A DNA stretch of 34,038 nucleotides. It comes from a virus (taxonomy: Duplodnaviria > Caudoviricetes). The stretch is taken from the IMG/VR virus record IMGVR_UViG_3300032236_000424, positions 1-34,038 of that record, one strand, 5' to 3'. The notes beneath the pieces were generated by a model that did not search any database, was not told where the DNA came from, and saw only the letters and a program-made list of their open reading frames with translations. Below, one piece after another: positions 22,711 through 27,301 of this stretch. The stretch's first letter is position 1, and each line of letters starts with the position of its first letter. Position numbers and translations under genes: made by a program.

Positions 22711-22953
22711 ATGAAATATGATTTATTTGGTGAAATTATCACAGCTCAAGCTGAATGGCAGGACATGCCTGAATTCTTTCAGGAAGATTTAACTCCTCAC
22801 AGGGTCATTTATGTCAGATTCAGAAATGATGAAGATGTCCAAAAGTTTGCTGAGTTGATGGGTCAAAAGATTACCCCCAAGGCAAAAACTATTTGGTTTC
22901 CTTATGCTGAACCCAGAGCTGTTGCCCATTTGAGGTATGTAGATGAAGAATAA
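22711..22953 (+). CDS. Small partner protein of the glycosyltransferase
   Basis: EWQDMPEF.QED...VRFRN.EDV..FA..MGQ.IT...KTIWFP; GAGG RBS; overlaps the GT start. Confidence 0.7.
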   Translation: MKYDLFGEIITAQAEWQDMPEFFQEDLTPHRVIYVRFRNDEDVQKFAELMGQKITPKAKTIWFPYAEPRAVAHLRYVDEE

Positions 22954-23800
22954 ATATCCAATTTACATTGTTTCTAAGGGTAGGCATGAAAGCAGGCTAA
23001 CTAGCAAAGCATTAGAAAAAATGAATGCTGATTATTTCATTGTTGTTGAGGAACAGGAATTTGATTTGTATGCCAAACACATAAGCAAAGATAAGATACT
23101 CATCCTTCCACAGAAATATCTGGATGAGTATGACACCTTTGATGACCTTGGAAATACCAAAAGCAAAGGCCCAGGAGGAGCTAGAAATTTTGCTTGGGAG
23201 CATTCCATAGGTTTAGGTGCTTTTAGGCATTGGGTCATGGATGACAATATTGAAAACTTTTGCAGGCTGAACAGAAACAGGATGGTCAGATCCCATACAC
23301 CTACCATTTTTAAATGTGCAGAGGATTTTGTGGATAGATACACCAATGTCTACATCTCTGGATTCAATTATGATTTTTTTGTTTTGGCTAAAGCCTTACA
23401 CCCTCCATTTGTGATGAACACTAGAATTTACTCTTGTTTGCTTATCCAAAATGACATCCCTTACAGATGGAGAGGTAGATACAATGAGGATACAGATTTG
23501 TCCCTTAGAGTCTTGAAAGATGGGTTTTGCACCATTCAATTCAATGCTTTTCTACAGCAAAAGGCAACTACACAGACCCTCAAAGGAGGCAATACAGATG
23601 CTTTTTATGCCAAAGAGGGAACTTTGCCCAAGTCTCAAATGCTAGTGGATATGCATCCTGATGTGTCAAAAGTGGTTTGGAAATTCAACAGATGGCATCA
23701 TGAGGTAAATTACAGGAAATTTAAAGCTAACCAACTCATCAGGAAAGAGGGATTAGTGGTTAAGCCTGGAATTAATAATTATGGGATGAAATTGGTATGA
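22943..23800 (+). CDS. GT-A fold glycosyltransferase, GREB1/TAGT-like
   Basis: YPIYIVSKGR, G...ARNF.W, WVMDDNI (metal-binding acidic motif), RIYSC.LI, NEDTDL and GGNT motifs. Confidence 0.8.
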   Translation: MKNKYPIYIVSKGRHESRLTSKALEKMNADYFIVVEEQEFDLYAKHISKDKILILPQKYLDEYDTFDDLGNTKSKGPGGARNFAWEHSIGLGAFRHWVMDDNIENFCRLNRNRMVRSHTPTIFKCAEDFVDRYTNVYISGFNYDFFVLAKALHPPFVMNTRIYSCLLIQNDIPYRWRGRYNEDTDLSLRVLKDGFCTIQFNAFLQQKATTQTLKGGNTDAFYAKEGTLPKSQMLVDMHPDVSKVVWKFNRWHHEVNYRKFKANQLIRKEGLVVKPGINNYGMKLV

Positions 23801-25144: not shown

Positions 25145-25308
25145 CCTTTTTGTGGGTGAGCTTTTTCCATAGGAAGGTGCTCATGCTTTTTGAGCTTGTC
25201 CTCTAGTCTATGCAACTCATGCTCAGTTTTCTTTTCATGCTCCCTCAAAACTACATAATGAGCCTTGGGAGACTTGTATTCTTTGCCTTCAATTTTAAAG
25301 TTTTTCAT
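25141..25308 (-). CDS. Small His/Lys-rich protein
   Basis: Likely start MKNFK at 25308; last gene of the late operon. Confidence 0.55.
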   Translation of the reverse strand: MKNFKIEGKEYKSPKAHYVVLREHEKKTEHELHRLEDKLKKHEHLPMEKAHPQKG

Positions 25309-25753
25309 ATTCATCCTTAGAAAGTAAACCAATTTTGTATTTTTTGGCAGGGTTAAAAATAGTCAATTTCTGCATCCTCATCTCAGGAGCAAAGCTAATG
25401 TGAGTCCAAATTCCATACTCATGGATGAGTTGGTCAAATTTGATCCCTGCATCCTCAATAGCCTTGGCAACCATTAAAGGTGTCCCAAAGTCCTTGCATG
25501 TGAAGTCAATAGCCCAACCATCCATGTGGCTAGAAACCTTGGCTCCCCCAACTGCTTGGTTTACCTCTGGCAGTCTTAACCATGAATTAATATGAATAGA
25601 CTTACCCAACAAGGCTCTGACCTCTTCCATGCCTTGGGCTGACTTTTTCATGTTTTCTAGTTGTTGCTCACTTGGCTGATTACTGATACCAAGTCTGGAG
25701 GCAGTCTCAGAGTAAGTAGCCTCCTCAAGTGTGAAATGTTCACTCAGATTCAT
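25295..25753 (-). CDS. Endolysin, peptidase M15A family
   Basis: LSEHFTL.E, SSHM.G.AID and WTHIS zinc-ligand motifs. Confidence 0.9.
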   Translation of the reverse strand: MNLSEHFTLEEATYSETASRLGISNQPSEQQLENMKKSAQGMEEVRALLGKSIHINSWLRLPEVNQAVGGAKVSSHMDGWAIDFTCKDFGTPLMVAKAIEDAGIKFDQLIHEYGIWTHISFAPEMRMQKLTIFNPAKKYKIGLLSKDEYEKL

Positions 25754-25967
25754 TTTGAGCCTTTCCTATGTGAATTCCTGTGATTAGACCAAGGAATCCA
25801 CCACAGATGGATTGGAATGCAGGCCCAACAATATCAAACACCACTTTGTCATCCACAGTTGGATCAAGCACTGCCTGAACAAACATCCAAATCATTGAGG
25901 CAATCACTCCCATGAGGGAAAGAGTTGCAATCATAGTTACACAGCCTTTTAGTGTCCAGTTTTTCAT
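25740..25967 (-). CDS. Putative holin (2 TM)
   Basis: Two hydrophobic helices; adjacent to the endolysin. Confidence 0.55.
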   Translation of the reverse strand: MKNWTLKGCVTMIATLSLMGVIASMIWMFVQAVLDPTVDDKVVFDIVGPAFQSICGGFLGLITGIHIGKAQNESE

Positions 25968-26422
25968 TGGTTTCCTTTCATTATTTTATAAACATTATTG
26001 TATTGATCTATGCATGAATTTAGTTCATTTATGGCTTTGTCACCTGTTGTGGTGAGGCTGATAAGGAAGTTACTAGTTGATTGGTCAAGTTGGGTTCCCT
26101 TTTCTGAATCTGCATAGGAGGCATCTGAGGGCATTGATAAGCCACTTTTGGTGTGGATGAACAACCTGAGATTAGCACTAGCCAAATCAGACCTAAGTTG
26201 AGCTTGTTTTTGATCTGCATCTTTATTTATTTTTTGGAGTTGTTGATAAGAGCTTGAATTTTGCTCAACCATTCTTTGCTCATTTGCCCTAGCTTGCTCA
26301 TTAAGCCTTGCAACTTCAATTTGATTTCTTGCTGATTCATCATTTTCTCCTTTGTAGTAACCTGACCCAAATGCACCAAGTATTGACACAATCATTCCCA
26401 AAAGAACCCAAGGATTAAACAT
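25964..26422 (-). CDS. rz: Inner-membrane spanin (Rz-like)
   Basis: N-terminal TM, coiled coil and LNSCIDQY C-terminus; likely start 26422. Confidence 0.8.
   Translation of the reverse strand: MFNPWVLLGMIVSILGAFGSGYYKGENDESARNQIEVARLNEQARANEQRMVEQNSSSYQQLQKINKDADQKQAQLRSDLASANLRLFIHTKSGLSMPSDASYADSEKGTQLDQSTSNFLISLTTTGDKAINELNSCIDQYNNVYKIMKGNQ
26029..26220 (-). CDS. rz1: Outer-membrane spanin lipoprotein (Rz1-like), embedded in rz
   Basis: Signal peptide with lipobox LVLISG-C and a Pro-rich mature part, in an alternate frame inside rz. Confidence 0.75.
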   Translation of the reverse strand: MQIKNKLNLGLIWLVLISGCSSTPKVAYQCPQMPPMQIQKREPNLTNQLVTSLSASPQQVTKP

Positions 26423-26433
26423 TTCTGCCCCTT

Positions 26434-26691
26434 TTATATGCAATATTTTGGTGAATATCCAGTTTCTCTAAAAATCTTATAACATTCATATTCTTTGCTA
26501 TTTTCTCTGAATTTCTTTTTGAACTCAATATGCCAAGGCTCTTCCACTTTACTTCTTTGATAGTCTAAGTTGATGTAATACATCAGTCCAAAGATGGTGA
26601 GCATAACCACCAAGATTGCAATGCAGATTGCAATTCTAAGTGTCCATCTCTCTTTTCTTTCTCTTCTTTCTCTTTCTTCAACTTGATCCTT
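26434..26691 (-). CDS. -1 frame extension (85 aa: TM plus two-Cys domain) of the 27074 gene
   Basis: Open -1 frame from the A9 run (26690-26698) to TAA at 26434, which abuts the rz RBS. Confidence 0.7.
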   Translation of the reverse strand, partial: KDQVEERERRERKERWTLRIAICIAILVVMLTIFGLMYYINLDYQRSKVEEPWHIEFKKKFRENSKEYECYKIFRETGYSPKYCI

Positions 26692-27074
26692 TTTTTTTGA
26701 TCTTTGTCAAACTTGGCTTGATCCTTTTCTAGTTTTTCTCTTTCTTTTTGAAAGTCAGACCATAAAGCACCAAGCTCTGGAGGTGATTCATAAATCAAAA
26801 CTCTCCTTAAATCCTCCTCTGCCTGTTCTAGTTGTTTTCTCTTAATTACATTCTCAAGTGCTTGAGCCTTGATACTTTTGCCTTTAGGAGGATTCTTTTC
26901 TTTATGCTTGACCTCTGCAATAGCTTTTTCTTGATGGTCAAAAAAAGAGCCAAGTGAATCACTCAGCTCTGAATATATTCCAACTACTTCCTTTCCCACA
27001 CCCTTGGCCTCTTTATACAAAGCCACCCCTTGCTTAATAGCAGAGACAGCTGAGATAGCCAACATGAAAGGCAT
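26583..27074 (-). CDS. Coiled-coil protein; zero-frame product of a probable frameshift gene
   Basis: 163-aa ORF containing CAA AAA AAA AGG at codons 126-129. Confidence 0.7.
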   Translation of the reverse strand: MPFMLAISAVSAIKQGVALYKEAKGVGKEVVGIYSELSDSLGSFFDHQEKAIAEVKHKEKNPPKGKSIKAQALENVIKRKQLEQAEEDLRRVLIYESPPELGALWSDFQKEREKLEKDQAKFDKDQKKRIKLKKEKEEKEKRDGHLELQSALQSWWLCSPSLD

Positions 27075-27301
27075 TATTTGAGAGTAAAGTAGTGTGAAAG
27101 AAAGCCTACCAGACTAGAAATGCCTGAGACCACCATCATGCCAACCCAAAAACCTCCTTTAGATTTATCAGCCATAGAAACTAGCTTTTCAATAGAGTTT
27201 TCAAGTTTGTCTATTTTCTTTTCCATAGAATCAAACTTTTTTTCATAGTCCTCTACCTTTTGCCAAAGGACTCCATATTTAACTAAATCAATTTCAGCCA
27301 T
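27074..27301 (-). CDS. Small coiled-coil plus C-terminal TM protein (holin- or XhlA-like)
   Basis: Heptad region followed by GGFWVGMMVVSGISSLVGFL. Confidence 0.6.
   Translation of the reverse strand: MAEIDLVKYGVLWQKVEDYEKKFDSMEKKIDKLENSIEKLVSMADKSKGGFWVGMMVVSGISSLVGFLSHYFTLK

Follow-up and report, generated by a model that had tools for sequence, protein, structure and literature searches.

A conserved, probable recoding site at an A9 run of a phage lysis-cassette gene predicts a soluble and a membrane-anchored product

The window, which is the whole analysed stretch of 34,038 bases, carries P22-like portal, scaffold, head and DNA-ejection genes of a phage, as determined by profile search. 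The gene under study lies on the minus strand within the order tail fibre, XhlA-like 75-aa protein, recoded gene, Rz/Rz1, 75-aa hydrophobic ORF and M15 endolysin; the cassette features below are all on this strand. The XhlA/hemolysin-like small membrane protein (27074..27301, 75 aa; phrog_1193, E 9e-4) is encoded upstream, and its stop codon overlaps the start of the recoded gene (TAATG). The Rz-like i-spanin gene (25964..26422; phrog_1327, E 9e-15) begins 11 nt past the stop codon of the -1 frame and contains an embedded Rz1-like ORF (26029-26220; phrog_3198, E 8e-5). The hydrophobic 75-aa ORF of the ORF list (25740..25967), for which PHROG and Pfam matches were absent, is a holin candidate by position only, and the endolysin gene (25295..25753) encodes a peptidase M15 (phrog_894, E 4e-34; PF08291, E 6e-17). 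A glycosyltransferase gene of this small podophage, at window positions 22943-23800, was matched by phrog_842 (beta-glucosyl-HMC-alpha-glucosyltransferase label) with E 1e-54.

The zero-frame ORF (26583..27074) translates into 163 residues, the predicted short soluble form, consisting of an N-domain of residues 1-128 (26691..27074) and a 35-aa tail. The two parts meet at a run of nine A (26690..26698), read on the coding strand as GAT CAA AAA AAA AGG (T9 on the plus strand), within which the heptamer A_AAA_AAA (26697-26691) is in phase. The run is the sole A/T run of eight or more in the whole window. The -1 frame is open from just 5' of the run through TAA (26436-26434), which abuts AAGGGG, followed by the Rz-like ATG at 26422. 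The frame-shifted product would comprise 213 aa, residues 129-213 being encoded by the extension (26434..26691). The highest 19-residue hydropathy of the zero-frame product was 1.46, located N-terminally, and a hydrophobic segment is absent from its C-terminal part. The hydropathy of the long form peaked at 2.77 over residues 148-166 (26578..26634), the predicted transmembrane helix. Its cysteines are at positions 151, 198 and 212, with Cys198 and Cys212 as a C-x13-C pair (26440..26484) in a small C-terminal, probably periplasmic domain. One extra A would give the same 213-aa product, and runs of 8 or 11 would lead to termination at 131-132 aa, just beyond the N-domain.

Two further details of the gene were recorded. 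It begins with M-P-F-M, resulting in two potential Met starts with no SD (window 27063-27077), and most relatives begin with M-D-P. An inverted repeat, ATTGCAAT-CTGC-ATTGCAAT (26608-26642, minus strand), was spotted by eye in the helix-coding part about 50 nt past the run, which is too distant for a standard stimulator.

Viral, metagenome, genome and phage collections were scanned for homologues, resulting in 198 loci plus the window, many of them duplicates. Four of the 199 were truncated and excluded (L002, L060, L093, L170), and the remaining 195 collapsed to 117 distinct stretches; L137 and L188 were reassigned by hand to the in-frame group. The distinct stretches comprised 102 frame-broken and 14 uninterrupted ones and one artefact, a ratio that is not a family frequency, as the distant queries were chosen for looking broken. 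The artefact, L048, was set aside because of an internal duplication and a frame jump in its N-domain, which likely arose in assembly. No loci were found with queries P0139 and P0142, and the sole locus from the genome collection came from a Bacteroidetes bin and may belong to a phage binned with it. The in-phase A_AAA_AAR, at one fixed codon with respect to the N-domain, was present in 102/102 broken and 0/14 uninterrupted stretches, compared with a background of 9 among 13,743 N-domain codon positions. The most divergent broken clade has 36% identity to the window N-domain, and most of the distant representatives at 50% identity are uninterrupted. A further run, A8 and again with the heptamer in phase, was noticed 30 nt past the site in L017, L025, L028, L032 and L033 (gene nt 407).

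The first-pass annotation had proposed a recoded gene with a short form lacking and a long form carrying a membrane anchor, had read a run of nine A's, and had named homologues that are uninterrupted and lack a conserved run as a ground for refutation. The recoding and the run were upheld by the survey and this ground failed, since relatives with as little as 36% identity keep both run and break at one codon; uninterrupted homologues were found as well (14 of the 117 distinct stretches). An assembly error, a recent inactivation or phase variation between A9 and A10 at the DNA level would be suggested by the error-prone nature of homopolymers and by the existence of uninterrupted homologues, and the comparison of sequencing runs was at contig level. 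Against it, the break was retained in 176/195 scored loci. No in-frame A10 allele was found among 75 distinct A9-10 sequences; the single A10 arose by substitution and keeps the break. Contigs from eight public runs had no indel at A9, and beyond the probable source (X1), those of X2 (75 differences), X4, X7 and X8 spanned the run with substitutions only and no gaps. In-frame relatives have the run itself interrupted (GAA AGA AAA). Only one other run of nine or more A's was detected on the coding strand across 58 non-redundant related loci (271 kb). Together with the purifying selection on the -1 frame described below, these results leave such an error or variation a negligible chance.

The selection on both frames was estimated as nonsyn/syn from pairwise single-base difference counts over 60 A9-type genes, not tree-corrected, which resulted in 0.39 for the N-domain. 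Directly past the slip site the values were 1.40 in the -1 frame vs 5.26 in the zero frame, in the region of the transmembrane helix 0.51 vs 2.28, and in the C-terminal part 0.73 vs 6.88, respectively. This shows that the -1 frame is under purifying selection and the zero-frame tail, 1-95 aa long among relatives, is under none. The -1 extension was also 35% identical over 77 aa (E 1e-14) to the C-terminal part of the uninterrupted homologue P0122. The ORF list contains a TTG-started 59-aa ORF (26613-26434), from which the -1 frame could be translated as a separate gene. However, this TTG is located within the predicted transmembrane helix, and already directly past the slip site the nonsyn/syn values are in favour of the -1 frame. 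Uninterrupted homologues also align colinearly through this point, and a separate start would leave the fixed heptamer unexplained; two separate genes are thus highly improbable. The window gene very likely makes both a short soluble and a long membrane-anchored product, and conserved programmed recoding in this uncharacterised family of lysis-cassette membrane proteins is supported by comparative sequence analysis.

According to the AlphaFold2 model (pLDDT 90.1, pTM 0.79), the N-domain has four predicted helices (residues 2-25, 31-60, 68-94 and 99-127), and the slip site coincides with the end of this confidently predicted compact domain. The model of an uninterrupted homologue (pLDDT 80.8) comprises three helices, a long one that spans the anchor, and a short one at the C-terminus. 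Seven K/R were counted in the 15 residues before the transmembrane helix and two in the 15 after it, and from this bias the long form is likely oriented N-in/C-out. The two-Cys tail was present in 74/100 complete extensions. The claim that the shift adds both a transmembrane helix and a two-Cys domain therefore held for the anchor, which is the constant addition, and the Cys tail proved to be optional, as it is missing in 26/100. No Pfam or PHROG family was matched by either half of the window protein. In structure comparisons, Foldseek gave no match to the PDB at E<=0.001, the named top matches in BFVD were uncharacterised phage proteins only, and the ESM Atlas yielded only unnamed viral clusters. 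The best VIA-align Z scores, 10.7 with the full length and 9.3 with the N-domain, were obtained with helical bundles of a generic kind, spectrin repeats and syntaxin Habc among them, and for that reason the SNARE-like outline is not read as a sign of homology. A likeness of the N-terminus to HeLo/MLKL-type pore domains was also considered and gained no support, as none occurred among the fold or profile matches listed.

A PHROG lysis gene was detected among the next 1-3 ORFs in 21/22 broken loci, examined as 22 of 47 representatives, and in 4/9 in-frame loci, the other 5/9 having no lysis match in the 1-3 ORFs tested. These counts and the profile matches of the window neighbours bore out the suggested lysis-cassette location. 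The downstream neighbours vary, including holin, Rz, phrog_1544 and at least five endolysin families, and in the broken group L162 a terminase is found downstream instead of a lysis gene. As a lysis gene is nearby in nearly all broken loci examined despite the changing neighbours, the long form is read as a likely lysis accessory protein in the inner membrane. Upstream of the L162 family member, a 150-aa protein of similar outline (L162:1046-1495), for which a PHROG match was absent, is a possible paralogue. The commonest downstream neighbour, a 165-aa phrog_1544 protein of unknown function (L008:3650-4147, with many relatives), replaces a 3-TM holin or Rz directly before the endolysin and is a candidate holin. 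Regarding holins and antiholins, the recoded gene has the cassette position and, in the long form only, a transmembrane helix; no holin family in PHROG or Pfam was matched by the window halves or by 39 uninterrupted members, and the holin/antiholin-like role put forward in the first-pass annotation remains a prediction.

Four signal classes were distinguished among the 102 broken sequences: A6 with A_AAA_AAG (18), A7 with A_AAA_AAG (9), A9 with A_AAA_AAA only, which is the window type (61), and A9-10 with A_AAA_AAG (14). A_AAA_AAA in a run shorter than nine was found in none of the sequences, the long-run classes were 9-10 long in 75/75, and the length of nine occurred in both of two codon phases. 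Structure within 42 nt past the heptamer was compared with synonymous randomisations for 58 representatives at 90% identity and of similar GC. A 3' hairpin beyond the synonymous expectation was detected in 11/18 short-run, 0/29 A9-10 and 1/11 in-frame representatives, and the independence of these counts is limited, since in the tree the short-run genes fall into about three groups. The remaining 7/18 short-run representatives failed the test, and RNAalifold gave a consensus of 0 pairs, the short-run hairpins having no common register. An SD-like motif was present in 15/27 short-run relatives, mostly at the 17-nt edge, and in 1/61 of the A9 class (control 0.16). A 5' hairpin specific to the A9 class was not found. 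In the window, no structure was predicted in the 60 nt downstream (MFE 0.0) and no SD-like motif was detected.

The distant short-run clades very probably use -1 ribosomal frameshifting at A_AAA_AAG with a hairpin, as judged from their sequences; A_AAA_AAG is among the best E. coli frameshift motifs described in PMC4066793. For the window clade, either a ribosomal shift or polymerase slippage had been suggested in the first-pass annotation. The recoding stood, and of the two routes slippage is the better fit, given the A9 run, hairpins in 0/29 and SD-like motifs in 1/61. A run of about nine or more lies at the frame transition and its length is kept across codon phases without stimulators, as in transcriptional slippage. 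Of the features of bacterial -1 ribosomal sites, the in-phase X_XXY_YYZ is present, and neither a stem-loop starting 4-10 nt after the motif nor an SD-like motif 6-17 nt upstream was found in this clade. The lack of hairpins at A9-10 points to RNA polymerase slippage, which appears to be the main route with somewhat better than even probability, the rest being divided between ribosomal and mixed routes. Slippage by bacterial polymerase is described as efficient at nine A/T (PMC5009743), and in PMC6260861 the host polymerase is described as inactive below eight A's and T7 polymerase as slipping on short runs. The statement in the latter that E. coli polymerase favours T runs, with little rescue on runs up to 8, counts against the slippage reading.

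The main rival explanation assumes the same two products with a ribosomal shift in the window clade too: tandem tRNA-Lys would slip -1 on A_AAA_AAA, perhaps aided by a slow AGG codon. The heptamer is in X_XXY_YYZ phase in 102/102, AGG is the next zero-frame codon in 59/61 A9 genes, and the distant clades bear the ribosomal signature. However, AGA and AGT also occur at this codon, the hairpin and SD counts give no sign of stimulators, the E. coli motifs rated best have A_AAG at their end (PMC4066793), and the run is never shorter than nine when AAG is absent. This route is considered a real but clearly smaller possibility. The Lys codon past the heptamer was AAG in 61/61 A9 genes, vs AAA in 208/326 N-domain Lys codons; the A9 clade stems for the most part from one lineage, so its 61 sequences, or 25 at 90% identity, do not count as independent cases. 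The flanks of the run are near-fixed in the A9 class (window 26686-26699, minus strand), with C before and GGA after at 97-100%, above the neighbouring codons. Possible reasons are protein constraint (Q126, K129-D130), the AGG codon or the slippage context.

In a tree of 61 N-domains (unrooted, with 25 rows labelled from protein alone), the in-frame label required 8 changes, of which 4 were forced by well-supported branches. The in-frame L050 and L054 (GAA AGA AAA) grouped at 100/94 with the A9-bearing L049 and the truncated P0123, which indicates that the break was probably lost in L050/L054. The repeated occurrence of uninterrupted lineages implies that some phages can manage with no short form. 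More distant uninterrupted relatives were found via the family profile: 11 of 17 proteins, all distant in-frame members, matched phrog_32327 of unknown function (E 2e-6 to 8e-13), which the window protein does not match. The members of phrog_32327, including XLZ15461.1 of Limnohabitans phage DC31 and gp42 of Roseobacter phage CRP-113, share the N-domain, long helix and C-terminal anchor, but in contrast to the window gene they have no frame break and no Cys tail. In the cultured phage DC31, the relative is preceded by an XhlA-like gene and followed by Rz-like and endolysin genes.

Programmed slippage at the conserved A9 very likely gives mostly the soluble 163-aa form and a smaller share of the 213-aa form, which has a predicted anchor in the inner membrane. 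In the window clade one A would probably be added by the host RNA polymerase, and the anchored long form would have the soluble short one as its partner or brake. This explanation as a whole, polymerase slippage at A9 with two products and the short form as partner or brake of an anchored lysis accessory, is modestly favoured from the sequence features. A working role of the short form in setting lysis timing is plausible. It is suggested by the site being fixed at the domain end across distant clades with two signal types, and by the tssM1 precedent, where both forms are needed (PMC4256274). Alternatively, the recoding would be a mere throttle, which limits the amount of a membrane protein that could be lethal and/or controls how many ribosomes reach the next lysis gene; the short form would then be waste. 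Such a throttle agrees with the unselected zero-frame tail of 1-95 aa, with in-frame lineages having no short form, and with the short distance from the -1 stop to the next start, -4 to +11 nt in 41/44 broken representatives that have a downstream ORF; slippage in spa13 and mxiE is described as influencing the next gene (PMC5009743). However, the position of a throttle within the gene would be arbitrary, whereas the slip site keeps its place at the end of the domain in distant clades and with either signal type; close packing is found in in-frame loci also, and the window Rz has its own SD. This alternative is less likely than not, and nearly as likely as the partner or brake role.

Lambda S105/S107 is a holin/antiholin pair with opposed roles, made from one gene by dual starts. 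The window gene resembles it as a lysis-cassette gene with two predicted products, and differs in that recoding would take the place of dual starts. Lysis-related recoding has reportedly been found in MS2 coat/lysis, and a lactococcal phage lysin is said to be made from two overlapping genes. No sequence match to the lambda holin/antiholin or to Mu releasin was obtained in profile searches. Mu gp25 releasin (DUF2730) is likewise a membrane-tethered cytoplasmic lysis accessory, but its anchor is N-terminal and it serves SAR endolysins (PMC9239132), whereas the anchor of the window protein is C-terminal and its N-terminal hydropathy 1.46.

The closest parallel in signal is dnaX tau/gamma, where one family obtains a short/long pair via A_AAA_AAG with a 3' hairpin or via a 9-A run: a -1 ribosomal frameshift with stimulators in E. 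coli and nine-A transcriptional slippage in Thermus thermophilus (PMC5009743). In contrast to dnaX, it is the long form of the phage gene that needs the shift, the protein is a lysis-cassette membrane protein known here from sequence alone, and a conserved SD stimulator is absent. The A11 transcriptional frameshift in Citrobacter rodentium tssM1, as described in PMC4256274, also concerns an interrupted membrane-protein gene in which an A run restores the full length seen uninterrupted in relatives, and both forms and their ratio are required there. Both TssM1 forms retain the membrane part and serve bacterial secretion, whereas the phage gene switches the anchor and belongs to phage lysis. E. 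coli copA/CopA(Z) and Ebola sGP/GP are described in PMC5009743 as soluble and membrane forms of one gene obtained through recoding; the proteins are unrelated to the phage family, the copA shift makes the short form, and Ebola uses the viral polymerase. The tail-assembly chaperone G/GT also has a conserved -1 shift over divergent tailed phages with a fixed short:long ratio (PMC5009743). In contrast, the window gene lies in the lysis module between XhlA-like and Rz-like genes, not between the major tail and tape-measure genes of a long-tailed phage, and its extension is a membrane anchor. A tail chaperone was thus rejected, and the earlier judgement that this explanation does not apply to a phage with a P22-like portal and head proved correct.

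In the literature covered, with subscription journals largely outside its scope, no description of this family was found; the supplements of PMC3711429 and PMC10885494 could list the family. Most known cases of conserved recoding in tailed phages concern tail chaperones and capsid/tail extensions, to which a lysis-module family is now added. The family is common in lake phages (the window phage is of freshwater), and routine annotation presents it as a hypothetical protein, truncated to 160 aa and soluble; the family points to a predicted, uncharacterised lysis accessory protein. At one codon it provides a natural series of hairpin-assisted A_AAA_AAG, bare A9 and locked in-frame genes, which offers a test of why a gene takes ribosomal or polymerase slippage. 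Arguments on this choice have so far come mainly from dnaX and IS elements; a driving role of host tRNA-Lys content in the route switch is an idea discussed in PMC5009743. Tentatively, the family may be a widespread undescribed lysis regulator, in which recoding would yield effector and inhibitor by switching the anchor, and lineages would have swapped ribosomal, polymerase and locked in-frame solutions at one codon. If true, the effector/inhibitor reading would make the gene a recoding counterpart of the dual-start holin/antiholin.
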